Source: a bacterium (GTDB lineage Bacteria > Planctomycetota > UBA1135 > UBA2386). From it: DNA of 64,000 bases. The stretch covers positions 114,910-178,909 of the forward strand of contig JAUILN010000010.1 of the NCBI GenBank assembly GCA_030432695.1, written 5' to 3'. Below are positions 1 to 56,987 of this stretch, in pieces. Numbering within the stretch: the first letter of the stretch is position 1; every line of letters starts with the position of its first letter. The notes below the pieces were generated by a model. That model was not told the origin of the DNA and ran no database searches. It saw nothing but the letters and a program-made list of their open reading frames with translations. The position numbers and the translations under genes are program-made.

Positions 1-242
1 ACTTCCCGAACATCAAGGCCTACTGGATCATGCTGACCGCCGAGAGCGCCCAGACCGCCCTGTCGTTCGGCGCCAACGACATCGACGGCACGGTGACCGA
101 GGAGAAGATCACCCACGACGCCGGCACCACCGCACCCGAGCGGATGAACATCGAGGACCTGCAGAACCTCATCCGCGAGGCCGGCTACACCCCCGTCCAG
201 CGCACCACCACCTACGAAGAACTCGAGGCGGTGGGGGGTTAA
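1..242 (+). CDS. 3' end of futalosine-pathway radical SAM enzyme (MqnC/MqnE family, cyclic dehypoxanthinyl futalosine or aminofutalosine synthase); partial, starts upstream of window
   Basis: Frame 3 reads ...FPNIKAYWIMLTAESAQTALSFGANDIDGTV(T)EEKITHDAGT...NLIREAGYTPVQRTTTYEE, typical C-terminus of MqnC/MqnE. High GC3. Stop TAA at 240-242. Confidence 0.65.
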   Translation, partial: FPNIKAYWIMLTAESAQTALSFGANDIDGTVTEEKITHDAGTTAPERMNIEDLQNLIREAGYTPVQRTTTYEELEAVGG

Positions 243-272
243 CAACTCGACCCGGCCGGGTTGTGAACCCCC
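233..272. repeat. REP-like imperfect palindrome (left arm of REPtron); inverted copy of 1282-1320
   Basis: GGGGGGTTAACAACTCGACCCGGCCGGGTTGTGAACCCCC contains the central perfect palindrome CCCGGCCGGG and is ~93% identical to the reverse complement of 1282-1320. Its GTTAAC core supplies stop codons for both convergent genes. Confidence 0.6.
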
Positions 273-1240
273 TCTGCCTCGTCGACGAGAACCCGCTCCG
301 CGAACGCGGCGCACCAGGCCGAGTAGGCGGCGTCCACCTCGATGCGGACGCAGTGGCGCTTCCAGAGCGCATGGGCTCGCTCGGCCGAGATTCCCAGGCA
401 GAGGCCCACGCCGCGAAACGTCTGACCCGTGAGCGAGCGGAGCATTCCGACTAGCACGCAGCGGGACACGACCTCGTCCACATGGACGGCCAGTGGAAGC
501 GCCGCCTCATCCACCTCTCGCCACGCCTCCAGCAATAGCTCCGGCGGGATGAGTCGAGATCCCCGCGTGGCGTCACCGTCCGCCAACCTCGCACGGCGAC
601 GTAACCACCGTTCCGCGCCATCCGCAACGATGGCCCTGGCCCGGACTCCTGCCGCGATCGGCGTCCGATCCCAGAGGCTGTACTCGATGGAGTCGGACTG
701 GCGACCGGTCGGCCTGAAGAGCCGCGAGTATGGCCCCTCGTCGAGATCGCCATCCGGCAGCAGGCTGCGGATCCAATCCGAGCTGAGCCACTTCGGCGGC
801 CCGGCGACGAACCGCCGGGCGCTCCCATGTGGATACTGCACCGGACGATCACAGAGCCTTGCCTGCACCGGATTCCAATCGATGTAGCCGACGAGAACCC
901 GCCGATAGACCCGATCCCCGACGGAGTTCGAGAAGAACCCGTTCCGCACCAGCGGACCGTCCCGATCGTGAAGCTGGTTGAACGCCTGCACGTAGCGCGA
1001 CTGGATCCAGGCAAGCGAGTCGCTGATCCCGCGGGCTCGGGTTCTCACCAGCAGATGGAAGTGCGTGCGGAGGATCGCGAAGGCGTGAACCTCGAGCCAT
1101 CCGCGCCTGACGGCTCGCGCGACCAAGGAGAGGAACATGCGGATCTCGTGATCCGACTCGAAGAAGGGGCGGCGGCCCACCGCGCGATTCATCACGTGGT
1201 GCCAGGCCCCGGGATGGTCCCGACGATCGATCTTGGGCAT
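239..1240 (-). mobile_element. REP-associated tyrosine transposase (RayT / TnpA_REP, IS200-like HUH Y1 family) with ~190-aa C-terminal extension
   Basis: HUH motif THFHLLV and catalytic Tyr context GYIDWNPVQARL (compare RayT YIYINPVKHG). The N-terminal ~140 aa match the Y1 transposase fold. Flanked by inverted REP-like hairpins. Confidence 0.7.
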
Positions 1241-1281
1241 GCGGTCCGGTGCCCCGGCGCAGCCGCTCGGTCACGGTGCAT

Positions 1282-1320
1282 GGGGTTAACAACTCGGCCG
1301 GGTCGAGTTGTTAACCCCCC
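1282..1320. repeat. REP-like perfect hairpin (right arm of REPtron)
   Basis: GGGGTTAACAACTCG-GCCGGGT-CGAGTTGTTAACCCC: 15-bp perfect stem, 7-nt loop. Inverted copy of 233-272. Confidence 0.6.
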
Positions 1321-1450
1321 ATGACGGGTGGGAAAGGTCGGTGCGACCGGCGGAAAAGGGCTGGCCTCCCGAATTTCACTTTCCGTATAGTCGAGGAGTT
1401 CGGCCCGGCCTCGCTGCTCTCGAGGGCGGGCCGATTCGCTCGTTCCTTGG

Positions 1451-3403
1451 ATGCCAAGCGGATATCGCCCCATGCACCACGCCCCTGCTCTCTCCCTCTC
1501 CCTCCTCGCGGCCGCGACGCTGAGCGCGGCCCTCGGCGCGCAGGACGCGCTGCCTTCGATCGAGGTGAAGCCGATGCGTGACGTCACGCAGTTGCCGGCC
1601 CAGTCCTCGACCCGGGTCATCGTGAAGTTCGAGGCCCATGTCGACACCGCCCCGCTGGCGGGTGACCTCGCCGAGCTGCTCGCGCCGCTCGGCGTCCGCC
1701 TGGCCGACCGCGGCTACGCCGGCGCGTTCGAGGTGCTCGAGGTGCCCGCGAACAGCCAGGCGCTGTTCATCGACTGGCTGAACCGCCAGGACGCGGTCGC
1801 CTACGCCGAGCCCGATGGGATGGCCTACGCGTTCGGCAATCCGCCGAACGACACCTACTTCGCCTACCAGTGGCACCTGATGGACCACGGCATGACCAGC
1901 GTCAACGCGGTCAGCAACTTCGGGGTCCAGGCGCCCGAGGCATGGAGCACCGCGAACGGCTCCGGCGCGGTGGTCGCGGTGGTCGACACCGGCGTCGCCT
2001 ACGAGAACTTCGGCGGTTTCGCGCAGGCCCCCGACCTCGCCAACACGTCGTTCACCCCCGGCTACGACTTCGTCAACAACGACACCCACGCCAACGACGA
2101 CGAGGGCCACGGCACGCACGTGACCGGCACCATCGCCCAGTCGACGAACAACAACCTCGGCACGGCAGGCGTCGCCTACGGCGCGACGATCATGCCGGTG
2201 AAGGTGCTCGACAGCAGTGGCTCCGGCGCCATCTCCTGGGTCGCCAGCGGCATCATCTACGCGGCCGACAACGGCGCCGATGTCATCAACCTGAGCCTCG
2301 GCGGCGGCGCCTCGACCACCCTGCAGAGTGCCGTCGACTACGCCTGGAGCCAGGGTGCGGTGGTCGTCGCGGCCACCGGCAACAGCGGCGCCAGCAGCAT
2401 CAGCTACCCGGCCCGCTACACCAACGCCATCGCCGTCGGCGCGACCGACTTCGCCGGCAACCGCTCCTACTACTCCCAGTACGGCACCGGCATCGACGTC
2501 ACCGCACCCGGCGGCGACGTCACCGCCGACCTCAACGGCGACGGCTACGGCGACGGCGTGCTGCAGCAGACGATCGGCACCAGCGTCACCAGCTTCGGCT
2601 ACTACTTCTACCAGGGCACCTCGATGGCCACGCCGCACGCCGCCGGCGTCGCCGCGCTGATCAAGAGCGCCAACCCGAGTCTGAACAACGCCCAGATCCG
2701 CTCGATCCTCGAGTCGACCTGCGTCGACCGCGGGGCCGCTGGCTACGACACGACCTACGGCTACGGAATCGTCGACGCCGCAGCCGCGGTCGCGGCGGCA
2801 GGCGGCGGCGGAGGCGACCCTGCCCCGGGTGCCCCGACCGGCCTCGGCGCCACGGCCGGCGACGGCACCGTGAGCCTCGACTGGAACGACAACTCCGAGT
2901 CCGACCTCGACGGCTACCACGTCTACCGGTCGACCGGCGGCGGCTACACCCGACTGACGAGTTCCCCGATCTCGGCCAGCGCGTACACCGACAACGCGGT
3001 CACCAACGGCACGACCTACACATACGTCGTCACGGCGATCGATAACGCCGGCCAGGAGAGCGCCCAGAGCGGCTCCGCCTCGGCGAGCCCGCAGGGCAGT
3101 GGCGGTGGGGACACCACTCCTCCGGCTACCCCGACCGGCCTCACCGGGAGCAACAGCACGCGTGGAGTCGCCTCGCTCGACTGGAGCGACAACTCCGAGT
3201 CCGACCTCGCCGGCTACAACGTCTATCGGGCAACCAGCCGCAACGGCACCTACTCGCAGATCAACGGCGGCCTGGTGACCTCGAGCGACTACGTCGATTC
3301 CAACGTCAGCCGTCGGGTGCGCTACTACTACAAGGTGACCGCGGTCGACACCTCCGGCAACGAGAGTGGCCAGACCGGCTGGGTCTCGGTCCGCGTCCGC
3401 TGA
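1451..3403 (+). CDS. Secreted subtilisin-like serine peptidase (S8) with two C-terminal fibronectin type III-like domains
   Basis: Signal peptide. Catalytic triad motifs VVDTGV (Asp), HGTHVTGTIA (His), GTSMATPHAAGVAALI (Ser). Two FN3-like repeats (LDWNDNSESDLDGYHVYRS / LDWSDNSESDLAGYNVYRA). Alternative start at 1472. Confidence 0.9.
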   Translation: MPSGYRPMHHAPALSLSLLAAATLSAALGAQDALPSIEVKPMRDVTQLPAQSSTRVIVKFEAHVDTAPLAGDLAELLAPLGVRLADRGYAGAFEVLEVPANSQALFIDWLNRQDAVAYAEPDGMAYAFGNPPNDTYFAYQWHLMDHGMTSVNAVSNFGVQAPEAWSTANGSGAVVAVVDTGVAYENFGGFAQAPDLANTSFTPGYDFVNNDTHANDDEGHGTHVTGTIAQSTNNNLGTAGVAYGATIMPVKVLDSSGSGAISWVASGIIYAADNGADVINLSLGGGASTTLQSAVDYAWSQGAVVVAATGNSGASSISYPARYTNAIAVGATDFAGNRSYYSQYGTGIDVTAPGGDVTADLNGDGYGDGVLQQTIGTSVTSFGYYFYQGTSMATPHAAGVAALIKSANPSLNNAQIRSILESTCVDRGAAGYDTTYGYGIVDAAAAVAAAGGGGGDPAPGAPTGLGATAGDGTVSLDWNDNSESDLDGYHVYRSTGGGYTRLTSSPISASAYTDNAVTNGTTYTYVVTAIDNAGQESAQSGSASASPQGSGGGDTTPPATPTGLTGSNSTRGVASLDWSDNSESDLAGYNVYRATSRNGTYSQINGGLVTSSDYVDSNVSRRVRYYYKVTAVDTSGNESGQTGWVSVRVR

Positions 3404-3407
3404 TCTA

Positions 3408-3452
3408 CTCCTTCCGAGATTCGGCGCGCCCAGCGCAGATTCTCGGAAGGAG
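3408..3452 (+). terminator. Terminator-like hairpin immediately after the subtilase stop
   Basis: ctccttccgagattc-(19 nt)-gattctcggaaggag: ~14-bp stem with one mismatch, 4 nt after the TGA. No T-tract, as is common in high-GC genomes. Confidence 0.4.
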
Positions 3453-3765
3453 TCGATCCAAACAACACCGTCAGCGCGGCCGACTGCCTCGGGGCATGGC
3501 GAGCGCAGCGAGTCGTGCCCCTTCGGTCAAGGCAGGAGGCCGCACAGAGCGACTCCGGAGGAGTCGATCCAAACAACAACGTCAGCGCGGCCGACTGCCT
3601 CGGGGCATGGCGAGCGCAGCGAGTCGTGCCCCTTCGGTCAAGGCAGGAGGCCGCACAGAGCGACTCCGGAGGAGTCGATCCAAACAACAACGTCAGCGCG
3701 GCCGACTGCCTCGGGGCATGGCGAGCGCAGCGAGTCGTGCCCCTTCGGTCAAGGCAGGAGGCCGC
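3450..3765. repeat. Intergenic tandem repeat, 111-bp unit x ~2.9 copies, with nested palindromes
   Basis: The unit gagtcgatccaaacaacaacgtcagcgcggccgactgcctcggggcatggcgagcgcagcgagtcgtgccccttcggtcaaggcaggaggccgcacagagcgactccggag begins at 3450, 3561 and 3672; copy 1 differs by one base (aacaacAcc vs aacaacAAc). Each unit carries the palindrome gactccGGAggagtc and a GGGGCA...TGCCCC stem. Codon third positions are AT-rich in all frames. Confidence 0.85.
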
Positions 3766-3804
3766 GCTGAGCCCGTCGCGATCCTGACGGCTACGCTGGA
3801 ACGC

Positions 3805-7771: not shown

Positions 7772-8340
7772 CCGACAGGTCCTCACCGCAACATCGGACC
7801 CAGGTCCTCTACACGCATCCCGCCCCCGCCAAGTCACGACTCAACGTTGCGCTGCGCAACGCCCTGACCGGGCTGGAGAACGTCACCATCCGCGACCTCT
7901 ACGCCCACTACCCGGACTTCGACATCGACGTCGCCGCCGAGCAACGCGCGCTGCTCGAGCACGACTGCCTGGTGCTCCAGTTCCCGTTCTACTGGTACTC
8001 GAGCCCGGCGCTGCTCAAGCAGTGGCTCGACCTCGTGCTCGAATTCGGCTGGGCCTACGGACCCGGCGCCGACGCCCTGCACGGCAAGCGCGTGATGCTT
8101 GCGGTCACCACCGGCGGCCGCGCCGCCGCCTACCGACCGGACGGCACCAATCGGTTCACGATGACCGAGCTGCTGCGCCCGTTCGAACAGTCGTTCCACC
8201 TCTGCGGAATGCACTGGCTCGAGCCCTTCGTGATCCACGGCAGCCGCGCGGTCACCCACCACGACCTCGAGACCGTCCTGGCACCCGCCTATCGGGCCCG
8301 CGTGGCCGGACTGACCCTCGACGACGGAGTCCACCGTTGA
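7768..8340 (+). CDS. kefG: Glutathione-regulated K+ efflux system ancillary protein KefG-like (NAD(P)H quinone oxidoreductase fold)
   Basis: NVTIRDLYAHYPDFDIDV, LVLQFPFYWYSSPALLKQWLD and RPFEQSFHLCGMHWLEPFVIH align closely with E. coli KefG. TTG start at 7768 is confirmed in the sequence. Confidence 0.8.
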   Translation: MTDRSSPQHRTQVLYTHPAPAKSRLNVALRNALTGLENVTIRDLYAHYPDFDIDVAAEQRALLEHDCLVLQFPFYWYSSPALLKQWLDLVLEFGWAYGPGADALHGKRVMLAVTTGGRAAAYRPDGTNRFTMTELLRPFEQSFHLCGMHWLEPFVIHGSRAVTHHDLETVLAPAYRARVAGLTLDDGVHR

Positions 8341-10199
8341 TCCTCGCCGCCCAGGGGTTCCTCCCGCAGGCCGCGGTCTACCTGGCCGCCGCGGTCCTGG
8401 TCGTGCCGATCGCCCGCCGGCTCGGCCTCGGCTCGGTGCTCGGCTATCTGATCGCCGGCGTCGCGATCGGTCCGTTCGGCCTCGGTCTGGTCGGCGACAC
8501 CGAGAGCGGCGAGATGCTCCACGTCGCCGAGTTCGGCGTGGTGATGATGCTGTTCCTGATCGGCCTGGAGCTGCAGCCGCGCCTCTTGTGGCGCATGCGC
8601 ACGCCGATCCTCGGGCTGGGCGGGCTGCAGGTCGTCGCCACCACCGCGCTGCTGGGCGCTCTCGCGATGGCCGCCGGCCTGAGCTGGCAGGCCGCGTTGG
8701 CGGTCGGCATGACGCTGTCGCTGTCCTCCACGGCGATCGTCCTGCAATCCCTCGCCGAGAAGGGCATGTCCAACAGCGCGGCCGGTCGCTCGGCCTTCGC
8801 GGTGCTGCTGTTCCAGGACATCGCGGTGATCCCGATGCTCGCGCTCCTGCCGCTGTTGGCCAGCGAGTCCACCGCGAGCACGACCGGCGACGGCCAGCAC
8901 CCGCTGGTGGTACTCGGCACGGTCGCCGCCGTGGTGGTCGCCGGCCGCTACCTGTCGCGGCCGGTGTTCCGCTTCCTCGCCGCCTCGGAACTGCGCGAGA
9001 TCTTCACCGCCGCGGCCTTGCTGCTGGTGGTCGGAGTGTCGCTGGCCATGCTCGCGGTCGGCCTGTCGCCAGCGCTCGGCGCGTTCGTCGCCGGCGTGGT
9101 CTTGGCCGAGAACGAGTACCGCCACGAACTCGAGGCCGACATCGAGCCGTTCAAGGGCCTGCTGCTCGGCCTGTTCTTCCTGTCGGTCGGCGCCGGCATC
9201 GACTTCGGCCTGCTCGCCGAACGTCCGGCGACCATCGCCGCGATGGTGGCCGGGCTGGTCATCACCAAGCTCGCGGTCCTGGCGGTGCTCGGACGCGCCT
9301 TTCGGATGCCGGCCGGCGCCGGATTGCTGTTCACCTTCGCGCTGGCCCAGGGCGGCGAGTTCGCCTTCGTGCTGTTCGAGTTCGCGCGGCAGAACGGCGT
9401 CCTCGCGGCAGACACGACCGGCCCCTTGGTCGCCGCCGTCGCGCTCTCGATGCTGGCCACCCCGCTGCTGCTGATCCTCGAAGAGCGCTGGATCCGACCG
9501 CGGCTCCGCTCGGCTGCGTCCTCCGCACCAACCGAAGCGCCGGCCGGCCCCGACGGCCACGCCCGCCGCGTGATCCTCGCCGGCCATGGTCGATACGGTC
9601 ATATCGTCTCGCGCCTGCTCAAGGCCCAGCGGCTGGAACCGACGGTCCTGGAACTCGACCCCACGCAGATCACCCTGCTGTCGCGCTTCGGACTGCAGTC
9701 GTTCTACGGCGACGCCTCGCGCGCCGATCTCCTCGAGGCCGCCGGGGCCCGCGACGCCGAGCTGCTGATCGTCGCCGTCGACGCCCCCGATGCCGCCCTC
9801 GCGATCGTCCGCGAGGCCCGCCGCAGCTTCCCGCATCTGCGCATCCTGGCGCGGGCCCGCGGCCGCGCGTCGGCCTACGACCTGCTCGATGCCGGCGCCG
9901 AGGAGGTGTTCCGCGAGACCCTGGAGAGCTCCCTGGCCCTCGGGGCACGCGCACTCACCGCGTTGGGTCGGCACCCGCACGAGTCCCACCGCGCCGCGCA
10001 GACCTTCGGCCGCCACGACCGCCGCAACTTCCACGAGCTGCACGCGCACCGCCACGACCAGGCGAAGTACGTCTCCGAAGCGCGCGCGCGGATCCAGGCC
10101 CTCGAACAGGTCCTGGAAGCCGACCGGTCCGACGAGTCGCCCGCGGTCGATGGCGCCTGGGACCCACCGGGCCCTCCCGCGCCTCAACCTCCCGCCTGA
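8337..10199 (+). CDS. kefB: Glutathione-regulated K+/H+ antiporter KefB/KefC (CPA2) with C-terminal RCK/TrkA-N domain
   Basis: N-terminus [50 protein letters not shown] matches the KefB/KefC start. RCK domain [18 protein letters not shown]. TTG start overlaps the kefG stop (GTTGA), matching the kefGB operon layout. Confidence 0.85.
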   Translation: [620 protein letters not shown]

Positions 10200-10239: not shown

Positions 10240-11535
10240 ATGCGCTCACCGTCGATGTCACCGTTCGCCTGTCTGCTCACGGCCTGTGTGATCGCCGGAG
10301 CAGGAGCGTCGCAGGATCGTCCGCCCTCGCGCCGCGAGACCACCGAAATGGTCCGCAGCTTCCTGCAGATCGACGGGAAGACCGCCGACGGCCGCAAGGC
10401 GCAGCGCGAGATCCTGACCCGGCTGGAACTGGTCGCGGGACTGCGCGCGCGCGACGTCCGCGACTGGCGCAAGACCCTGGAGAAGGAGCAGCGCCGCCTG
10501 CGGACCCTCGAAGACGGCCACCGCAACTTCTGGTGGCCCGACGAGGAGCGCGGCCTCTACATGGTCGGCGGCGAGACCCGACGGCCGCGCGGCATCCTGA
10601 TCGCGATGCACGGCGGCGGGGTCGGCTCCGGGGACGCAGCCTCGGCGCACGGCTCCTACGCGCCGGCCGCTGCCGAACTCGACTGGGTGTGCATCAGCCC
10701 CGAGGTGCTGGAGAAGACCGAGCGCGGCTGGACCGACTCCGGCACCGAGGAGTGGGTGATGGACCTCGTCGACGCGGCACTCCGCACCTGGAAGGTCGAC
10801 CCGGCCCACGTCTACCTCGCCGGCCACTCGATGGGCGGCTACGGCAGCTGGACGCTCGGCGCGCACCACGCCGACCGCTGCGCCGGCCTCGCGCCGTCGG
10901 CCGGTGCTCCCACCCCGATCCTGGACCGCGCGACCGGCAAGGTGACCGACCTGGTCGAAGGCGTGATCCCCAACCTCCGGAACGTGCGGATCGCGATCTT
11001 CCAGAGCACCGACGATCCGCGGGTCCCGCCCGGTCCCAACCAGAAGGGCGTCGAGCTGCTCGGCGCGGCACGCGAGCGCTGGGGCGGCTTCGACTTCGAA
11101 TACTGGGAGGTCAGCAACCGTGGCCACGGCTTCCCCGAAGGTGGCGTGGTCGAACTGCTGCGAAGGGTCGAGGAATCGGTTCGCGAGCCGCTCCCCGAGC
11201 GCGTCGTCTGGCAGCCGGCGGTCGCCTGGAAGCGACAGTTCTACTGGCTGCACTGGGAGCGGCCGGCACTCGAGGCCATCGTGGTCGCCGACCTCGACCG
11301 CGAACACAACACCATCGCGATCCAGTCGAACGGCGCCGATCTCGCGGGCCTGTCGGTCTTGCTCGACGAGCGGCTGGTCGACCTCGACGAGGAGGTCGTG
11401 ATCACCGTCGACGGCAAGGAGACCCGCCGCGAGCTGTGCGCGGCGCGGCTGGCCGACCTGCTCGACACCTCGGTGCACCCCGACCCCGCACTCGGCTTCG
11501 CGGCGCGGCTGTCGGTGCTGGCCGACGACGACTGA
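10240..11535 (+). CDS. Secreted alpha/beta-hydrolase (esterase family)
   Basis: Signal peptide. IAMHGGGVG and nucleophile elbow GHSMGGYG. Paralogous to the C-terminal half of the 57305-59674 protein. Confidence 0.8.
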   Translation: MRSPSMSPFACLLTACVIAGAGASQDRPPSRRETTEMVRSFLQIDGKTADGRKAQREILTRLELVAGLRARDVRDWRKTLEKEQRRLRTLEDGHRNFWWPDEERGLYMVGGETRRPRGILIAMHGGGVGSGDAASAHGSYAPAAAELDWVCISPEVLEKTERGWTDSGTEEWVMDLVDAALRTWKVDPAHVYLAGHSMGGYGSWTLGAHHADRCAGLAPSAGAPTPILDRATGKVTDLVEGVIPNLRNVRIAIFQSTDDPRVPPGPNQKGVELLGAARERWGGFDFEYWEVSNRGHGFPEGGVVELLRRVEESVREPLPERVVWQPAVAWKRQFYWLHWERPALEAIVVADLDREHNTIAIQSNGADLAGLSVLLDERLVDLDEEVVITVDGKETRRELCAARLADLLDTSVHPDPALGFAARLSVLADDD

Positions 11536-13522: not shown

Positions 13523-15397
13523 TCAGCGAGCCTCGGGCAGCAGCCGGATCGACCGCAGGTTTGCCAGCGCCTTGCCCTCGGGGATCGCCGCTGCCGAGAC
13601 CCGCAGGGTCGCGCCGCCCTCCGGGACCTCGTCGAGGGTCAGCGTGCCGAGCGCGACGCTGCGGTACGCCTGCCAGCCCGCAGTGGCCTCGCCGAGCTTG
13701 CGCTGCACCCTCGCGCCACCGACCTCGACCTGCAGCGTGCCGCCCTCGTTACCCGGCTGGATCGCGACGTCGGCCCAGACCTGGTAGCGCCGCCCCGCCT
13801 CGACGACCAACCCGTCCCACGCCGCACCGTCGCCGACCGTGGTCCAGTAGCCGAGGTTGCTGCGCGCGCCGCCGGCAGCGCGGTCGTCGTGCGACTCGAC
13901 CTGCAGGTCCTTGGCCGGCCCGAGTGCGGCGTCGCCCGCGTCGAGGACGAACGATCCGTCGGCCGCCGGGAAGCGCCGCGGGTCGACGGCCGGCGGCTCG
14001 CGGAAGTCGAGCGCGACCACCGCCGCGTGGGGATCGGGGAACAGGCCCTGCTGGAGCGCGCGGGACAGGTCGATGCCGAGTCCCCGGTCGTTCCACTGGA
14101 ACTCCAGCTGCGGGTCGTCCGCGGGCCCCTTGCCGGTGACCCACCGCACCCGCTTCAGACTGCCCTGCAGCCCCGCGACGTGCAGCCAACCGCGCTCCGG
14201 CCAGTCGTAGAGCTGCAGGTAGACGGTGCCGCCCTTGGCCGTCGCGTTGCCCCAGGGCGTCCGCGTGAACGGCGCGCGCGTGGTGCCATAGATCGACTCG
14301 CCGTACGTCTCCAGCCAGCGCCCGATCGCCAGGAGCCGATCGACCTGGATCAGCGGGATGCGGCCATCGGCAGTCGGCCCGACGTCGAGCAACAAGTTGC
14401 CGCCGCGCGCCACGGTGTCGATCAACAGGCGGACCGCGGCGGTCCTCGAGATGTAGTCGTCGTAGCCCTCGGCGCGGTTGAAGGCGAACGAGCCGGCGGT
14501 GCCGCGACACTCCTCGAAGGGCTTCCTGCCGGCGAAGGTGTCATGGCCACCGTGGTGGCCGTACTCGGTGGTGTAGAAGTCACCGACCCGCCCACGCAGC
14601 CCCTTGCCCCAGCGGTCGTTGATCACCAGCCGCTCGGCGTCGGGGTGATTGGCGCGGATCCAGTCGACGATCTCCAGCGCGCGCCAGCTCGAGTCCGGGT
14701 GGTTCCACTCGCCGTCCGGCCAGAACACCGTCGGCCGGTAGCGTTCGACGAGTTCACGGATCTGCGGGAACATCACCCGCTCGACGTAGGCCGCGCGGTC
14801 GCCGTCGTACAGCGGGCTGTGCCACTCCATGAACGAGTAGTAGAGGCCCATGTCGAGACCGGCCGCGCGCACCGCCTCGGACAGCTCGCCGACCAGATCG
14901 CGCCGCGGCCCGGTCGCCGCACTGTTCCACGCGTAGCCGCGCACCTCGCTCGCCACCTCGCTCGGCCACAGGCAGTAGCCGTCGTGGTGCTTGCTGGTCA
15001 GCACCACGTAGCGCGCGCCGGCCCGCCGGAAGATGTCGGCCCACTCCGCGGGATCGAACAGCTCGGCCCGGAACAGCGGTGCGAACTCGCGGTACTCGAA
15101 GTCCTCGCCATAGTTCGCGGCGTGGAAGCGGCGCTCGAGACCGTCGTGGGCGTTGGTGTCCAGCCAGTGTTGGTACCACTCCGAGTAGGTGCTGGTGTCG
15201 CAGAACGACGGCACCGAGTAGACCCCCCAGTGGATGAAGATCCCGAACTTCGCGTCGGCGAACCACCCGGGCGTCGCGCGGGCGTTGCGCGACTCCCAGC
15301 TGGGATCGAGATCCTGCGCGGGCACCGCGGCGGAGGATCCGGCGATGGCTGCGGCGACCGCCGACACGAACGGGAGGAGCTTGCGAAACAGGGCCAT
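13523..15397 (-). CDS. Secreted alpha-L-fucosidase (GH29) with C-terminal carbohydrate-binding domain
   Basis: FGIFIHWGVYSVP, YVVLTSKHHDGYCLWPS and FWPDGEW are GH29 signatures. Signal peptide MALFRKLLPFVSAVAAAIAGSSAAVPA. The track ORF extends spuriously to 15556. Confidence 0.9.
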   Translation of the reverse strand: MALFRKLLPFVSAVAAAIAGSSAAVPAQDLDPSWESRNARATPGWFADAKFGIFIHWGVYSVPSFCDTSTYSEWYQHWLDTNAHDGLERRFHAANYGEDFEYREFAPLFRAELFDPAEWADIFRRAGARYVVLTSKHHDGYCLWPSEVASEVRGYAWNSAATGPRRDLVGELSEAVRAAGLDMGLYYSFMEWHSPLYDGDRAAYVERVMFPQIRELVERYRPTVFWPDGEWNHPDSSWRALEIVDWIRANHPDAERLVINDRWGKGLRGRVGDFYTTEYGHHGGHDTFAGRKPFEECRGTAGSFAFNRAEGYDDYISRTAAVRLLIDTVARGGNLLLDVGPTADGRIPLIQVDRLLAIGRWLETYGESIYGTTRAPFTRTPWGNATAKGGTVYLQLYDWPERGWLHVAGLQGSLKRVRWVTGKGPADDPQLEFQWNDRGLGIDLSRALQQGLFPDPHAAVVALDFREPPAVDPRRFPAADGSFVLDAGDAALGPAKDLQVESHDDRAAGGARSNLGYWTTVGDGAAWDGLVVEAGRRYQVWADVAIQPGNEGGTLQVEVGGARVQRKLGEATAGWQAYRSVALGTLTLDEVPEGGATLRVSAAAIPEGKALANLRSIRLLPEAR

Positions 15398-51149: not shown

Positions 51150-54100
51150 ATGATGCGACCCCTCTCTCCCCTGGTTCTCCTCTGCTCGCTCGGCGCGGCG
51201 GCCCATCCGGTGGCGCTGCCCGCCCAGGGCGGTGGCTCGACGGCTCGATCCCTGTTCGACGGCGAGACCCTCGCCGGCTGGCGCGGCGACCAACGCCTGT
51301 GGACGGTCGAGGACGGCGCCATCAAGGGTTCGACCCTCGACCACAAGATCGACTCCAACACCTTCCTGATCTGGGAGGGCGGCGAGGTCGAGGACTTCGA
51401 ACTGCGCTTCGAGGCGAAGTTCACCCCGGCGAACAACTCGGGCGTGCAGTATCGGTCGCGACCGCTCGACTCGAACCCGTACGGCGTGGCCGGCAACCAG
51501 TTCGACCTGCACCCGAGTCCCAACTACCTCGCGATGCTCTACGGCGAGCGCGAGCGTGGGATCGTCGCACAGCGCGGCCAGCAGGTGGTGGTCGGCGAGA
51601 ACGGCAAGTCGAAGGTGGTGGGCGCGACCAATCCGACCACGCCGATCGACGTGTCGCAGTGGCACGACTACCGCATCGTGGCGCGCGGCAACCACCTGAT
51701 CCACGAGGTCGACGGGGTGGTCGCGGTGGACATCACCGACAACGATCCGAAGGCGCGGCGCAGTGGCGTGATCGCCTTGCAGCTCCATCAGGGCGCACCG
51801 ATGAACGTCTGGTTCCGCAACCTGGAGCTGACGGCGTTCGCGCCCGACGGCGCCGAGGTGAGCGCCGCACCGGCAGCCGCCGGGACGCCGGACGAACCGG
51901 AGACGGCACCCCACTGGATCTGGAGTGGCGCCAGTGACGGCGAGCGGGCGTCGTTCCGCCACGCGTTCGAGGTCTCCGGCGACGTCGCCCTCGCCTCGCT
52001 GCACACGGCGGCCGACAACCACTGCGAAGTCTGGCTCAACGGCAAGCGGGTGCTGAAGAACGACGACTGGGCCGGGCCGAGCCGGGCCGACGTGAAGGAC
52101 GCACTGCGCGCCGGCCGCAACCAGCTCGCGGTCCACGCCTGGAACGACGGCGGACCGGCGGCCCTGGCGCTGCGCCTGTGGATCCGCGGCAGCGACGAGC
52201 AGGACACGGTGGTCGTCAGCGACGGTTCGTGGCGGGCGATCGCCGCTCAGGGGGCCGACGGCTGGCGAGACGGCTCGTTCGACGACTCGTCGTGGGGCAC
52301 GGCGACCGACCTCGGCGAGGTCGGCAGCTCCGGTCTGCCGTGGTCGGGCTCGGTGGGAGCCACCTCGTTCGGCGCTCGGCCGACACCGCCGAAGCCGCAG
52401 ACGGTGCGCGACGCCGAGATCCAGACGCTGCCGGGCTTCGTCGCCGAACTGGTCTACGAGGTGCCGCGCGACAGCCAGGGCTCGTGGGTCAGCCTCGGCA
52501 CGCTGCCCGACGGCAGCCTGATCGCCTCCGACCAGGCCGACAAGGGGCTGTTCCGGATCCGGCCGGCCGCGGTGGGCGTGCCCGGCGCGACCACCAGCGT
52601 GACGCGGATCCCGGTAGAGATCGGCGGCGCGCAGGGGCTCCTGTGGGCGTTCGACAGCCTGTACGTGATGGTCAACGGCCGCGGCTCGGGGCTCTACCGG
52701 ATCACCGACCAGGACGGCGACGGCGAACTCGACGACGTGAAGCTGCTGCGCAAGCTCGAGGGCGCGGGTGAGCACGGGCCGCACGCGGTCCGCCTGTCGC
52801 CCGACGGCGAGGCCCTGGTGGTCTGCGCCGGCAACCACACCAACCCGCCGGAGTTCGACGGCTCGCGGATCCCGACCAACTGGGGCGAAGACCTGCTGCT
52901 GCCGCGGCAGTGGGACGCACGCGGCCACGCCCGCGGGCGGATGGCGCCCGGTGGCTGGATCGCGCGGGTGTCTCCCGACGGCGAACACTGGGAGATGCTG
53001 AGCGTCGGCTACCGGAACGAGTACGACTTCGCGTTCGACCGGAGCGGCGAGATGTTCGCCTACGACGCCGACATGGAGTGGGACATGGGCATGCCCTGGT
53101 ACCGCCCCACCCGGATCTCCCACGCGACGAGCGGCAGCGAATTCGGCTGGCGCTCGGGAACCGGCAAGTGGCCGACCGACTACCCGGATTCGCTGCCGCC
53201 GCTGCTGGAGATCGGTCCCGGCTCGCCGACCGGCCTGACCTTCGGCTACGGCGCACGGTTCCCGGCCCGCTACGAGCAGGCGCTCTACGCGTGCGACTGG
53301 ACCTTCGGCACGATCTGGGCCGTCCACCTCGAGCCCGACGGCGCGACGTACCGGGCGACCAGCGAGGAGTTCGCCAGCGGCAAGCCGCTCGCGCTCACCG
53401 ACGTGGTGGTCGGCGCGGACGGCGCGATGTACCTCACGGTCGGCGGACGCGGTACGCAGTCGAAGCTGTACCGCATCCGCCACGAGTCGGCGCAGGCGGG
53501 TCCGGCCGGGCCGGCACTCGCGCTGACCACGCCCGAGGCCACGCTGCGCAAGCAGCTCGAGGCGTTCCACGGCAAGGCAGACCCCAAGGCGGTCGACACG
53601 GCCTGGCCGGCGCTCGGCCACCAGGACCGCTTCGTCGCCTACGCGGCCCGGATCGCACTCGAGTCCCAGACGGTCGCCGAGTGGCGGGAGCGGGCGATCG
53701 CCGAGACCGACCCGGCCATCGCCAGCAACGCGATGCTGGCCCTGGCCCGCCAGGGCTCCGGTGCCGAGGACCGCGACGCCGTGCTCCGCAAGCTGATGGG
53801 CCTGCGCGGTCCGTTCGGTGGCGAGTTCGGGGTGATCTCGCGGCTGCGCACCGCCGGGGTCGCGATGGCCCGCCACGGCATGCCGGACGAGCAACTCCGC
53901 CAGCAGATGATCGAGCTGTTGAGCAACAACCTCCGGCCGCGCAACAAGCGCATCTTCGTCGAGATGGTCAAGCTGCTGGCCTACCTCGGCGCGCCAACGG
54001 TGGTCGAGCAGGCGATGCCGATGCTGGTCGCGGCCGAGCCGTCGCCGGCCCCGGCGTGGTCGGAGCTGATCCAGCGGAACGACGGCTACGGCGGCCCGAT

Positions 54101-54887
54101 CGCCAAGATGCTCGCCGACATGCCGCCGCTCGAAGGCATCGACCTGGCCTTCGCACTGCGCAACGTGCGCTACGGCTGGACCCTGCCGCTGCGGCGCCAG
54201 TACTTCGAGTTCATCAACCGCGCCGCGAAGCACCCCGGCGGCGCCAGCTACGCCGGCTTCCTGACCAACTGCCGCAACGAGGCGCTGGAGAACTGCTCGT
54301 TCTTCGAGCGCGCCGCCTGCGCGGACCTGACCGGTGAGGAGCTGGCCGCGAAGCCCGACTTCGAGATCACGCCGCCGCAGGGACCGGGCCGGGCCTGGAC
54401 GATCGACGCCGCGGTGGAGGCCATCGAGGCCGGTCAGGGGCCACGCGACTTCGCCGCGGGTCGCAACCTGTTCCACGCGGTCGCCTGCGTGGCCTGCCAC
54501 CGCTTCGACGGCGCGGGTGGCGACATCGGCCCGGACCTGACCACGGTCGCCAACAAGTTCTCCACCCGCGACCTGCTGACCTCGATCGTGGAGCCGAGCC
54601 AGGTGATCTCCGACCAGTACGGCTCGTCGATCGTCACCCGCAGGAACGGCACCGAGGTGTTCGGCCGCGTCAACGAGAAGGACGGCGGCGACCTCGAGGT
54701 CTACCCGATGGACCCGAAGGCCGACCCGGTGCTGATCCCCGCCGCCGACGTCGCCGCGGTGAAGGCCTCACCGATCTCGCAGATGCCGCAGGGCCTGATC
54801 AACTCGCTGAACGCCGACGAGCTCCGCGACCTGATCGCCTACCTGATGTCGCGCGGCGACGAGAACGCCCCGGCCTACCGCCGCTGA
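51150..54887 (+). CDS. Giant Pirellula/Verrucomicrobium-type putative membrane-bound dehydrogenase: DUF1080 (3-keto-disaccharide hydrolase-like) + PA14/F5-8-like + glucose/sorbosone dehydrogenase-like beta-propeller + HEAT repeats + C-terminal cytochrome c
   Basis: Signal peptide. DUF1080 N-domain. HEAT-like region. C-terminal CVACH heme motif within a TIGR02603-like block (PDLTTVANKFSTRDLLTSIVEPS...ISQMPQGLINSLNADELRDLIAYL). Confidence 0.8.
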   Translation: MMRPLSPLVLLCSLGAAAHPVALPAQGGGSTARSLFDGETLAGWRGDQRLWTVEDGAIKGSTLDHKIDSNTFLIWEGGEVEDFELRFEAKFTPANNSGVQYRSRPLDSNPYGVAGNQFDLHPSPNYLAMLYGERERGIVAQRGQQVVVGENGKSKVVGATNPTTPIDVSQWHDYRIVARGNHLIHEVDGVVAVDITDNDPKARRSGVIALQLHQGAPMNVWFRNLELTAFAPDGAEVSAAPAAAGTPDEPETAPHWIWSGASDGERASFRHAFEVSGDVALASLHTAADNHCEVWLNGKRVLKNDDWAGPSRADVKDALRAGRNQLAVHAWNDGGPAALALRLWIRGSDEQDTVVVSDGSWRAIAAQGADGWRDGSFDDSSWGTATDLGEVGSSGLPWSGSVGATSFGARPTPPKPQTVRDAEIQTLPGFVAELVYEVPRDSQGSWVSLGTLPDGSLIASDQADKGLFRIRPAAVGVPGATTSVTRIPVEIGGAQGLLWAFDSLYVMVNGRGSGLYRITDQDGDGELDDVKLLRKLEGAGEHGPHAVRLSPDGEALVVCAGNHTNPPEFDGSRIPTNWGEDLLLPRQWDARGHARGRMAPGGWIARVSPDGEHWEMLSVGYRNEYDFAFDRSGEMFAYDADMEWDMGMPWYRPTRISHATSGSEFGWRSGTGKWPTDYPDSLPPLLEIGPGSPTGLTFGYGARFPARYEQALYACDWTFGTIWAVHLEPDGATYRATSEEFASGKPLALTDVVVGADGAMYLTVGGRGTQSKLYRIRHESAQAGPAGPALALTTPEATLRKQLEAFHGKADPKAVDTAWPALGHQDRFVAYAARIALESQTVAEWRERAIAETDPAIASNAMLALARQGSGAEDRDAVLRKLMGLRGPFGGEFGVISRLRTAGVAMARHGMPDEQLRQQMIELLSNNLRPRNKRIFVEMVKLLAYLGAPTVVEQAMPMLVAAEPSPAPAWSELIQRNDGYGGPIAKMLADMPPLEGIDLAFALRNVRYGWTLPLRRQYFEFINRAAKHPGGASYAGFLTNCRNEALENCSFFERAACADLTGEELAAKPDFEITPPQGPGRAWTIDAAVEAIEAGQGPRDFAAGRNLFHAVACVACHRFDGAGGDIGPDLTTVANKFSTRDLLTSIVEPSQVISDQYGSSIVTRRNGTEVFGRVNEKDGGDLEVYPMDPKADPVLIPAADVAAVKASPISQMPQGLINSLNADELRDLIAYLMSRGDENAPAYRR

Positions 54888-54894
54888 CGTGCCA

Positions 54895-54936
54895 GAGGGG
54901 TGAACATCTCGGCCCGGCCGAGAGGTTCACCCCCTC
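54895..54936. terminator. Near-perfect palindrome / bidirectional terminator between convergent genes
   Basis: gaggggtgaacatctcggcc|cggccgagaggttcaccccctc: ~19-bp stem. Confidence 0.45.
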
Positions 54937-54949
54937 GCAACGGACGAGG

Positions 54950-56290
54950 TCAGCCCCCTCGGGGTGAGAGCAGCGGGCGCAGCGCGATGCGCTTGAAGTG
55001 GATCTCGGCGCCCTCGGACTGGAAGCAGAGCGGGCCCGCGACGTCGTCGCACGACCAGGCCTCGTTCACGACCTCGCCGTTGACCCGCAGGCTGACCCAA
55101 CCGTCGTCGCAGACGATCTCGTAGCGGTTCCACTCGCCGAGCGGCTTCTCGTTGCCGTGGGTCTTCTTGGTGTTGCGACCCTTGGTCCGCGACGCGTCGA
55201 CCTGCATGCCGAACTGGTCGATGTTCCAGAAGTCGCCGGCCTGGCCCGACTGGAGCTGCGCCTCGATGCTCTTCGGCCAGACCTTGTGCGGCCCGACCTG
55301 TCGCAGCAGCACGCCGCTGTTGCCAGGCCCCTTCGCGGGGTCGAAGCGCCACTCGACCTCGAGCACGAAGTCCTCGAACGAATCCTTCGAGTAGAGGTAG
55401 CCGACCGGCTGGCCCTTGCAGACCAGCACCCCGTCCCGCACCGTCCAGATCGCGGCCAGCGGCGCATCGGTGTCGCCGCGCAGGTGGTATCCGAAAGCCG
55501 CGAGGTTGGCGTGGTTCTCGCTCGTGCCGTCGAACAGCACCACCTCCTCGCCGCGCCGCGCTTCCTCGGGCACCAGCTCGCGGATCTTGATGTTGCGGAA
55601 CGCGACCTCGTCACCGTGGTCCTGCAGGCAGATCAGACCGCGCGGATGGACGCCGAAGCCCTCCCACTTGGCGAACTTGCTGGCCGCGACGCGCTCCTTC
55701 CAGTCGTCCGAACCGAACTCGGCCTCGACGACCTTCGTGCCGTTCAGCCAATGCTCGACGCGGGCACCGTCGAGGACGATCCGCGTCTCGTTCCACTCCC
55801 CGGCCGGCTTCGGCTCCGCGCCCTCCGCGGCGTAGAGCGCGTACAGCGCCCCGACCCGGTGCTTCGGGTCGGCGTTGCCCGGATCGTCGAACACCTGGTA
55901 CTCCGGCCCGGTGTGGTAGCTCGGCCCGTCGGTCTCGACCACGCGGTACATGATCCCGCTGTTGCCCCCCGCCGCGATCCGCCACTCCAGCTGCAACTCG
56001 AAGTTGCGGTAGTCGCGTCGGGTGACCAGATCACCGCCACCCCCGCCGGCCCCGTGCCGCAGTTCGCCGGCGACCACCCGCCAGCCCCGATCGGGCATCT
56101 CCTCTCGCCGGTAGCCGCGCCAGGCATCGGTCGAGCGGCCGTCGAACAACACGTGCCAGCCCTGCGCGATCTCCTCCTGCGTCAGGCGGAAGGTCGGCTC
56201 GGGACTCCTGGTGGTCACGACCTCTTGCGCGGACGCGGTGAGGAGCAGCGACGCGGCGGCAACCGCGGGGAACAGGGATCGGACGGGCAT
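54950..56290 (-). CDS. Secreted protein with two DUF1080 (3-keto-disaccharide hydrolase / LamG-like) domains
   Basis: Signal peptide MPVRSLFPAVAAASLLLTASA. Two tandem DUF1080 domains (the WHVLFDG...FRNIKIREL pattern twice). Confidence 0.75.
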   Translation of the reverse strand: MPVRSLFPAVAAASLLLTASAQEVVTTRSPEPTFRLTQEEIAQGWHVLFDGRSTDAWRGYRREEMPDRGWRVVAGELRHGAGGGGGDLVTRRDYRNFELQLEWRIAAGGNSGIMYRVVETDGPSYHTGPEYQVFDDPGNADPKHRVGALYALYAAEGAEPKPAGEWNETRIVLDGARVEHWLNGTKVVEAEFGSDDWKERVAASKFAKWEGFGVHPRGLICLQDHGDEVAFRNIKIRELVPEEARRGEEVVLFDGTSENHANLAAFGYHLRGDTDAPLAAIWTVRDGVLVCKGQPVGYLYSKDSFEDFVLEVEWRFDPAKGPGNSGVLLRQVGPHKVWPKSIEAQLQSGQAGDFWNIDQFGMQVDASRTKGRNTKKTHGNEKPLGEWNRYEIVCDDGWVSLRVNGEVVNEAWSCDDVAGPLCFQSEGAEIHFKRIALRPLLSPRGG

Positions 56291-56342
56291 GCTGCGGGTC
56301 TCCAGCGGATCGGGGGAACGAGGGGGTATCTTGACCCTCGTG

Positions 56343-56987
56343 CCCGCTCCGACGCCACCGCCACCCCGCCTCGCCTGGCTGCCGAACGCCATCTCGGTGC
56401 TGCGCCTCGTGCTGGTTCCGGTGTGGTTCCTCGCGGCGGAGCGCACGCTCGTGCCCTCGAGCGATCCCGAGGGGTCCCTCGCCGGCCGGGACCTGACTCC
56501 GCTGCTGATCTGGCTCGCCATTGGCATCAGCGACGTGCTGGACGGTCACCTCGCCCGCCGTTGGCACGTCGAGAGCCGGGCCGGCGCGACCATCGACGCG
56601 GTCGCCGACAAGGCCGCCCAGATCGTCGCCTTCACCTGGCTCGCGCTGCGCGCGCCGGGCCACGCGTGGATGACCGCCGTCCCGCTGTGGTTCCTGCTGC
56701 TCCTGATCGCCCGCGACGCCGTGCTGCTGACCGGCTCGCTGTACGTCCGCGCCCGCCGGGGCGGTGTCGCGGTGGTCCACCGGTGGCACGGCAAGCTCGC
56801 CAGCCTGTTGCTGTTCGCGGTCGTCCCGGTCGCCACCAGCCTCGATGTGCCGTCGGCCGAGCTGGCCCTGTTCGCGCCACTCGCCCTGCTGGTGACCCTG
56901 AGCACCGTCGACTACTTCCGCGACGGACTCCGGCAGCTCCCGCGCGGCAGGCACCCGCCCCAGGGCACCCCGGAGAGCCCGCGGTAA
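56343..56987 (+). CDS. CDP-alcohol phosphatidyltransferase (PgsA-like)
   Basis: LPNAISVLRLVLVP N-terminus. Motif ISDVLDGHLAR...GATIDAVADK (D-x2-DG-x2-AR...G-x3-D-x3-D). Start uncertain (ATG 56289, TTG 56331 or GTG 56343); 56289 would collide with the divergent gene's start. Confidence 0.7.
   Translation, partial: PAPTPPPPRLAWLPNAISVLRLVLVPVWFLAAERTLVPSSDPEGSLAGRDLTPLLIWLAIGISDVLDGHLARRWHVESRAGATIDAVADKAAQIVAFTWLALRAPGHAWMTAVPLWFLLLLIARDAVLLTGSLYVRARRGGVAVVHRWHGKLASLLLFAVVPVATSLDVPSAELALFAPLALLVTLSTVDYFRDGLRQLPRGRHPPQGTPESPR

Follow-up and report, generated by a model that had tools for sequence, protein, structure and literature searches.

At the left end of a 64,000-nucleotide stretch of planctomycete DNA (contig JAUILN010000010.1; hereafter the window), the gene at positions 239-1240 encodes a class-2 TnpA_Y1 protein and is bracketed by two hairpin-forming sequences that are inverted relative to each other (Table 1). 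A preliminary description of this DNA, made from its letters alone, had read the locus as a REPtron, with a RayT-like transposase gene between inverted hairpins resembling repetitive extragenic palindromes (REPs). Our analysis makes it probable that the locus is a unit of the REPtron/TIRtron type, in which a single-copy, chromosomally fixed class-2 Y1 gene lies between inverted copies of a cognate hairpin of ~37 nt. It is better labelled as a class-2 Y1 locus of a TIRYT/TIRtron-like (subclass 2.1-like) kind, whose inverted repeats are of the hairpin type. This arrangement has already been described in bacteria and is not a new kind of system.

Table 1. Positions in the window of the Y1 gene, the domains that it encodes and the three hairpin copies (HTH, helix-turn-helix; ORF, open reading frame)
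Feature	Position	Strand	Description
Y1 gene	239..1240	-	333-aa class-2 TnpA_Y1 (RayT/TIRYT-like) ORF
HUH-Y1 nuclease domain	761..1240	-	residues ~1-160; H60/H62 at 1055-1063; catalytic Y119 at 884-886
Helical middle region	554..760	-	residues ~161-229; conserved RxKARLADG motif in the alignment
DnaA-domain-IV-like HTH DNA-binding domain	266..553	-	C-terminal, residues ~230-325
Upstream (right) hairpin	1282..1321	+	GGGGTTAACAACTCGG-CCGGG-TCGAGTTGTTAACCCC plus CCA tail; well preserved; 15/16 Watson-Crick pairs plus G:T
Downstream (left) hairpin	232..272	-	degraded inverted copy with 2 extra stem mismatches
Orphan third hairpin	54897..54933	-	53.6 kb away; in the 62-nt spacer between convergent ORFs 51150..54887 (+) and 54950..56527 (-)

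The protein has the features of the HUH/Y1 superfamily, namely an HUH metal motif and a single catalytic Tyr within an IS200-like fold. The two motifs named in the preliminary description, THFHLLV and GYIDWNPV, are encoded at 1046-1066 and 866-889, respectively, in an ORF whose 333 aa agree with the length it had estimated, and the nuclease domain (residues ~1-160) also holds the Y---NP motif and a GSA motif (S140, A141). The Y---NP signature of class 2 TnpA_Y1 proteins is present as YIDWNP, in which Y119 and N123 are invariant and the P belongs to the alignment consensus. Across a 52-member alignment of the family, N18, R19, H60, H62, Y119, N123, S140, A141, A220 and D221 were invariant. An AlphaFold model built from this alignment had a mean predicted local distance difference test (pLDDT) score of 88.6, and the nearest fold to its nuclease domain was that of E. 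coli TnpA_REP. The Pfam model Y1_Tnp (PF01797), against which the earlier reading was to be checked, matched the protein with a score of 23.0, exactly at its gathering cut-off of 23. By analogy, the protein is an HUH-tyrosine (Y1) single-strand DNA (ssDNA) nuclease/ligase of the RayT/TIRYT lineage, fused to a DnaA-like domain.

The second half of the protein had been regarded as an unusual extension of unknown function, a view that did not survive comparison with its homologues. A database search with the protein found 113 of them, mostly of 320-360 aa, with 33-49% identity and more than 90% query coverage, and the extension is therefore the norm in this family. The homology and structure searches that had been proposed for this region showed that it ends in a DnaA-domain-IV-like HTH domain related to Bac_DnaA_C/HTH_23/HTH_28, as in TIRYT and subclass 2.1 proteins. 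Sequence identity to domain IV of DnaA itself (1J1V, 3PVP) was 9-13%, and the window protein has no AAA+ module. Between the nuclease and the HTH domain lies a middle region in which the A220 and D221 of the RxKARLADG motif are invariant in the family alignment and for which pLDDT was lower in the predicted model (60-83); the last ~10 residues of the protein are unconserved in the alignment and have a pLDDT below 50. When residues 140-333 were run by phmmer against 1.84 billion representatives, only 11 proteins were retrieved, every one with the same Y1 fusion architecture, and no stand-alone or differently fused version of the C-terminal half was found. When plasmids were searched by tblastn, the N-terminal domain alone was matched (25-33% identity), and the long architecture of Y1 plus C-terminal domains was not found. 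The third-position GC content of the Y1 gene was 0.81, compared with 0.93 for the peptidase gene at 1451-3403, in a window of 70% GC.

The palindromes at the two ends of the gene, which had been described as 40-bp inverted copies of about 93% identity, were recovered by a repeat finder as inverted 40-nt arms at 232-271 and 1282-1321 that are complementary at 38/40 positions (95%), and direct alignment of the two arms gave just 87%. The calculated folding energy as ssDNA was -17.9 kcal/mol for the right arm (z -5.9); for the left arm it was -11.9 kcal/mol (z -2.4). A covariance model of the hairpin (R1) scored the right copy at 63.3 bits on the plus strand versus 43.2 bits on the minus strand, and the left copy at 65.9 bits on the minus strand versus 34.1 bits on the plus strand. 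Because these strand scores differ by 20-30 bits, the inverted orientation is genuine and not an artefact of palindromy, and the gene stands between inverted cognate palindromes, as in a REPtron. The upstream hairpin, with the non-coding strand of the gene as its canonical strand, precedes the Y1 start codon by 42 nt. As previously noted, the downstream hairpin overlaps the stop codons of both the Y1 gene and its convergent neighbour, with GTTAAC giving TAA at 240-242 on the plus strand and at 239-241 on the minus strand; the same hairpin encodes the last ~10 residues of the protein. The conserved motif of the stem is GTTNAC(A), and the stem shows a loose TTCACA/TTAACA likeness to the TNCACA of the DnaA box. 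No sigma-70-like promoter, intrinsic terminator or T-tract was found in positions 1-1600, and there were no matches to Rfam families across the whole window.

We examined nine genomic loci of homologues (L006, L007, L008, L022, L023, L024, L026, L027 and L028) and found that inverted repeats flank the Y1 gene in all nine. In the four closest (L006, L022, L023 and L024; 46-49% protein identity), these repeats are hairpins of the same kind; their apex, TCGRCCGGGTCGA, also written TCG[A/G]CCGGGTCGA, is invariant, and their stem varies from lineage to lineage. A gap-free alignment was obtained for thirteen hairpins from five loci, and 11 of the 16 stem pairs showed compensatory, two-sided changes. 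In a covariation test of this alignment, 85% of cells were paired, versus 25-46% when the partner column was slid, and 0 of 500 shuffles reached the observed score. Hairpin and protein co-vary across lineages. The geometry of the locus is constant as well: in every close relative ~40 nt separate the upstream hairpin, canonical on the non-coding strand, from the start codon, and the downstream hairpin, canonical on the coding strand, contains the stop codon in its 5' arm, so that the 3' tails of both hairpins point outward. At the flanks of the 13 aligned hairpins, a weak xCA tendency was the only signal on the 3' side.

The more distant loci carry repeats of other forms. A 40%-identical homologue at L007 has two hairpins on each side (9882-9973 and 10981-11079), with a different stem (CAGCAGTTCACA...TGTGGTTTGCTG) and with the CCGGG apex and strand rule of the window hairpins; a T(T/C)CACA motif in this stem loosely resembles the conserved half of the DnaA box. 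The terminal inverted repeats (TIRs) at L008 and L028 are non-palindromic and 65-74 nt long, and a perfect 31-nt palindrome, CGACACGCCGGTGTCTGACACCGGCGTGTCG, flanks the distant family member P0085 at L026. At L027, a ~31-nt unit (GGTGGTCACGGATCGCAGCCGCC...) is repeated in tandem on either side of the homologue P0070 (9661-9897 and 11042-11214), in eight copies upstream and about five downstream, and the two arrays are in inverted orientation.

Contrary to the preliminary description, which had found no further copies of the hairpin in the window and had left its uniqueness to be checked, the hairpin is not unique. A third copy, at 54897-54933, is identical to the right copy at 31 of 37 positions when read on the minus strand. 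Two of its stem pairs are changed on both sides and the G:T of the right copy has become G:C, with 15/16 pairs formed, and its ssDNA fold was calculated at -20.1 kcal/mol (z -6.5). Model R1 gave this copy 59.5 bits, a score that should be read with the caveat that the copy belonged to the training set of the model. A 15-mer with up to 3 mismatches matched the window 7 times versus 0.72 expected, and the repetition of the hairpin is therefore beyond chance. Six of these seven matches are arms of the three hairpins; the seventh, at 59234-59248, is isolated and has no partner arm, and was taken as chance. A search of the window with model R1 and its filters off revealed no copies beyond these three (next best 11.8 bits, E 0.46).

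Hairpins without a gene were also found near relatives of the Y1 gene. In the L022 locus, an orphan hairpin (14581-14618) immediately follows a stop codon at a distance of 7.3 kb from the Y1 gene; this copy is nearer to the downstream hairpin of L024 (GTTTACGAAT.GACCGGGTCGAAACGTAAAGGG) than to the hairpins that flank L022's own gene. At the distantly related L026, five clusters of the cognate palindrome (8234-8290, 9867-9970, 11003-11059, 14596-14646 and 15052-15108) lie in 21 kb of a 1.86-Mb contig. Three of the five are not next to the gene, and the palindrome forms a clear dispersed REP family tied to the same protein architecture. No orphan of the window's hairpin type was found within 10 kb to either side at L006, the other loci with that hairpin type being short or not exhaustively scored. 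The density of orphans was roughly one per 50 kb of relevant sequence, which is far below that of classical REPs and in line with the approximately 12 occurrences per replicon of the 16-mers that flank Bertels' Group 1 RAYTs (PMC5581495). An exact scan with GGTCGAGTTGTTAACCCC of a genome-contig collection that does not include the source genome gave four unrelated single matches, of which that in L001 lies in ATP-synthase-like coding sequence. A metagenome scan with a degenerate 33-nt pattern gave 12 matches, which were taken as chance, since none folds into a hairpin and none has an R1 score apart from a marginal 17 bits for L018.

The ends of an assembled contig may point to additional copies. 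A Logan k=31 contig of 1,070 bp (L005, from ERR3428543; four samples) is exactly identical to window positions 242-1311, with both of its ends at hairpin position 30. Among the records searched, the Y1 protein was present on this contig only, and the neighbouring S8 peptidase was absent. A unitig stops where the 31-mer from the inner foot has other left-hand neighbours, and these ends suggest that the 31-mers of each hairpin recur elsewhere in the sample. We rejected the explanation that hairpin palindromy alone broke the assembly graph, because the asymmetry at the centre of the hairpin leaves no 31-mer equal to its own reverse complement, and because exact identity between the two flanking copies extends over only 27 bases.

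No second copy of the gene was found in the 64-kb window by tblastn with the protein, and two pairs of related genomes each carry the gene at the same chromosomal site. L022 5736-8221 and L024 1-2472 are collinear across the cassette, with 87-94% aa identity in the flanking genes and 72% in the Y1 gene, for which the ratio of nonsynonymous to synonymous substitution rates (dN/dS) was 0.21. This collinearity and the low dN/dS indicate that the gene is under purifying selection at a conserved site. The second pair, L006 9959-16445 and L023 2060-8293, has common neighbours, a PepX_C peptidase and a FIST protein, with up to ~60-76% aa identity in tblastx segments; its Y1 alleles are 53% identical, and the Y1 gene has the opposite orientation with respect to the common neighbours. 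About 250 extra bases separate the Y1 gene from its neighbour in L023, as compared with L006. The single copy in the window, the shared locus in relatives and the dN/dS would fit vertical inheritance, yet the dS of the L022/L024 cassette (0.94) far exceeds that of its flanks (0.18-0.38). This excess may mean that recombination at the hairpins has replaced the cassette, or that the substitution rate is locally raised. Many homologues of the Y1 protein occupy contigs of about 1.1 kb.

Given these features, we propose a mechanism by analogy with E. coli TnpA_REP and IS608 TnpA (PMC8266576, PMC3479197). The Y1 domain would bind the folded hairpin on ssDNA, for example at a replication fork, and, with a metal ion presumably held by H60 and H62, Y119 would cut beside the foot of the hairpin and form a 5'-phosphotyrosine link. 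Rejoining of strands would then occasionally excise hairpin copies and re-insert them elsewhere, giving a low-density repeat family. Cleavage itself, the strand that would be used and the putative cleavage site are all modelled on the two enzymes. The DnaA-domain-IV-like domain probably adds binding of double-stranded DNA (dsDNA), and its role and target are matters for conjecture: it may recognise the GTTNAC(A) motif of the stem, or it might instead autorepress expression of the gene at the upstream hairpin, which is thinkable because that hairpin sits just before the start codon. The DnaA box is an unlikely target of the HTH, because the stem sequence GTTNACA resembles TNCACA just loosely.

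Several observations have to be set against the reading of this locus as a REPtron/TIRtron-type unit. The protein scored 54.2 bits (E 1.4e-14, residues 6-138) with the NCBIfam RayT equivalog NF047646 (REP_Tyr_transpos), below the cut-off of 80, and its Pfam match stood merely at threshold. Its Y1 signatures, THFH (versus N/DHxH), RF-S (versus W[EQ]) and YIDWNP, differ from those of every published subclass. No conserved tetranucleotide, such as the GTAG/CGTC tag of REPs, was present in the 6-nt 5' flanks of the 13 aligned hairpins, the 64-kb window has one orphan only, and no orphan hairpins were found within 10 kb to either side at L006. Of the initial REPtron/RayT interpretation, the HUH/Y1 fold and the inverted hairpins stand, whereas the NF047646 score and the missing GTAG tag do not fit it. 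The interpretation also calls for a high genome-wide copy number, a defining property of REPs, for which the window offers a single orphan. In favour of the REPtron reading, the HUH, Tyr and Y---NP residues are invariant in the 52 homologues, and the C-terminal half occurs only in fusion with Y1.

We considered whether the whole 1.09-kb unit of hairpin, gene and hairpin could be an autonomous insertion sequence (IS), with the hairpins as its terminal inverted repeats. The inverted repeats at the unit's ends have the form required, many homologues stand alone on ~1.1-kb contigs, as is common for repeated ISs in assemblies, and Bertels' Group 1 is the most IS-like group of RAYTs (PMC5581495); the lower third-position GC of the gene relative to its neighbour and the raised dS of the L022/L024 cassette, which could mean replacement by a foreign copy, point in the same direction. 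We nevertheless consider an autonomous IS unlikely, because the gene is present once in 64 kb, alleles as diverged as 72% and 53% aa identity occupy one and the same chromosomal site in related genomes, and orphan hairpins occur without the gene. Moreover, each end of the Logan contig falls at the inner foot of a hairpin and not at its outer end, which implies that the hairpins, and not the gene, are repeated in the sample, and neither tnpB nor a target duplication accompanies the unit. The locus also lacks the hallmarks of the IS200/IS605 family, whose members occur in multiple near-identical copies with Y---Q, same-strand hairpins and often tnpB. Compared with the TnpA proteins of IS608 and ISDra2, the window protein has Y---NP in place of Y---Q and extra C-terminal domains, its hairpins are mutually inverted, and its gene is single copy in the window, at a fixed locus and without tnpB in the window.

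A regulatory explanation, in which the hairpins serve an ordinary role in regulation or structure (as bidirectional terminators, stabilisers of mRNA 3' ends or operators) and the protein is an HTH regulator without ongoing cleavage, would account for the position of the left hairpin and the orphan, both of which lie between convergent genes just past stop codons. The placement of the upstream hairpin ~40 nt before the start in every close relative would fit an operator, and the C terminus has a bona fide dsDNA-binding fold. However, we dropped a plain-terminator reading for want of a T-tract or terminator-like site in 1-1600, and the invariance of the HUH, Tyr and Y---NP residues in 52 homologues under purifying selection would be unexpected in a protein that does not cut. 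The conserved apex and the covariation of the stem with the protein are as found in RAYT/REP pairs, and we judge a purely regulatory role to be improbable. Finally, the degraded left hairpin and the threshold Pfam match might suggest that palindromes and ORF are adjacent by chance, or that the ORF is a decaying pseudogene. This explanation is already effectively refuted, since the arrangement recurs in 9/9 homologue loci, the ORF is intact and of full length for the family, dN/dS is 0.21 in the L022/L024 pair, and motif counts are far above the shuffled expectation.

The REPtron/TIRtron-type unit that we favour resembles two groups of known systems. Quentin et al. (2018) described TnpA_Y1 subclass 2.1 as long class-2 proteins with C-terminal Bac_DnaA_C/HTH_23/HTH_28 domains, equated it with Bertels' Group 1 and found no REP-like sequences beside its genes (PMC6006769). 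According to Di Nocera et al. (2013), TIRYT genes in TIRtron loci have TIRs at a fixed distance, many of them with GGGGWSAS and some self-complementary; some TIRs belong to moderately abundant repeat families, and the planctomycete R. baltica is mentioned as rich in such genes and repeats (PMC3733652). TIRYT/TIRtron probably corresponds to subclass 2.1. The window protein likewise belongs to class 2 (Y---NP), exceeds RayT in length and carries at its C terminus an HTH related to Bac_DnaA_C/HTH_23; inverted repeats with a G-rich GGGGW... start flank its gene at a fixed distance. This start, GGGGTTAA or GGGGTGAA, agrees with GGGGWSAS at only 6-7 of the 8 positions. A typical 2.1 protein, encoded on an R. 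rubrum plasmid (235 aa, NHIH, YIELNP), was 30% identical over residues 1-146 only (hhalign probability 99.8%), and it has the N terminus MPRxxRxDxPG..HV.NRG in common with the window family. The two differ in that the window protein has 333 aa versus a median of 238, the additional ~70-100 residues being the helical middle region with ARLADG, and in their signatures: THFH, RF-S, YIDWNP and GSA stand against NH[VYF]H, W[EQ] or FQ, YIELNP or Y[IV]HLNP, and SS. In contrast to subclass 2.1, the flanks in the window family are clear hairpins with orphan copies.

Compared with a classical REPtron, such as that of E. coli TnpA_REP/RayT (yafM) with its REP/BIME sequences (4ER8; PMC3479197, PMC8266576), the locus has in common a single-copy gene between inverted imperfect palindromes, co-evolution of hairpin and protein, and orphan copies in spacers between convergent genes. 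It differs in having no GTAG tag, in showing no sign of hundreds of copies within the 64 kb covered, and in a protein that is twice as long and carries a DnaA-IV-like domain absent from RayT. It is conceivable, although we hold it doubtful, that the ~330-350-aa proteins, for which we saw Planctomycetota as the only taxon label, are a distinct and unclassified subclass of class-2 TnpA_Y1 (THFH, RF-S, YIDxNP, GSA and ARLADG plus DnaA domain IV), REP-associated unlike published 2.1, with a new tag-less type of REP that has a CCGGG apex and with a cassette that is inverted or replaced in situ between the hairpins. The idea of inversion or replacement in situ arose from the inverted gene in L006/L023 and from the dS of the L022/L024 cassette relative to its flanks.

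Pairs of RAYT and REP are the main model for the upkeep of a short-repeat population in a bacterial genome by a domesticated transposase. To our knowledge, their biochemistry has so far dealt exclusively with short proteobacterial enzymes that use a GTAG-tagged REP. The window locus and its relatives offer a clean, co-varying pair of protein and hairpin from a different branch, with a DnaA-like dsDNA-binding domain and a tag-less hairpin, which could be used to ask what the HTH contributes and how, with no tetranucleotide as a guide, the site of cleavage is selected. As a single locus, it is an expected kind of element; what was observed is genuine and goes beyond chance. Cognate hairpin repeats do accompany at least some Y1 proteins with an HTH, whereas the 2018 survey found none for 2.1, their most similar published subclass.

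Elsewhere in the window, positions 3448-3772 hold a tandem repeat that has no Rfam match and consists of 2.9 copies of a 111-bp unit with 98% matches. The S8 peptidase ORF ends at 3403, and the repeat starts 45 nt past its stop codon.

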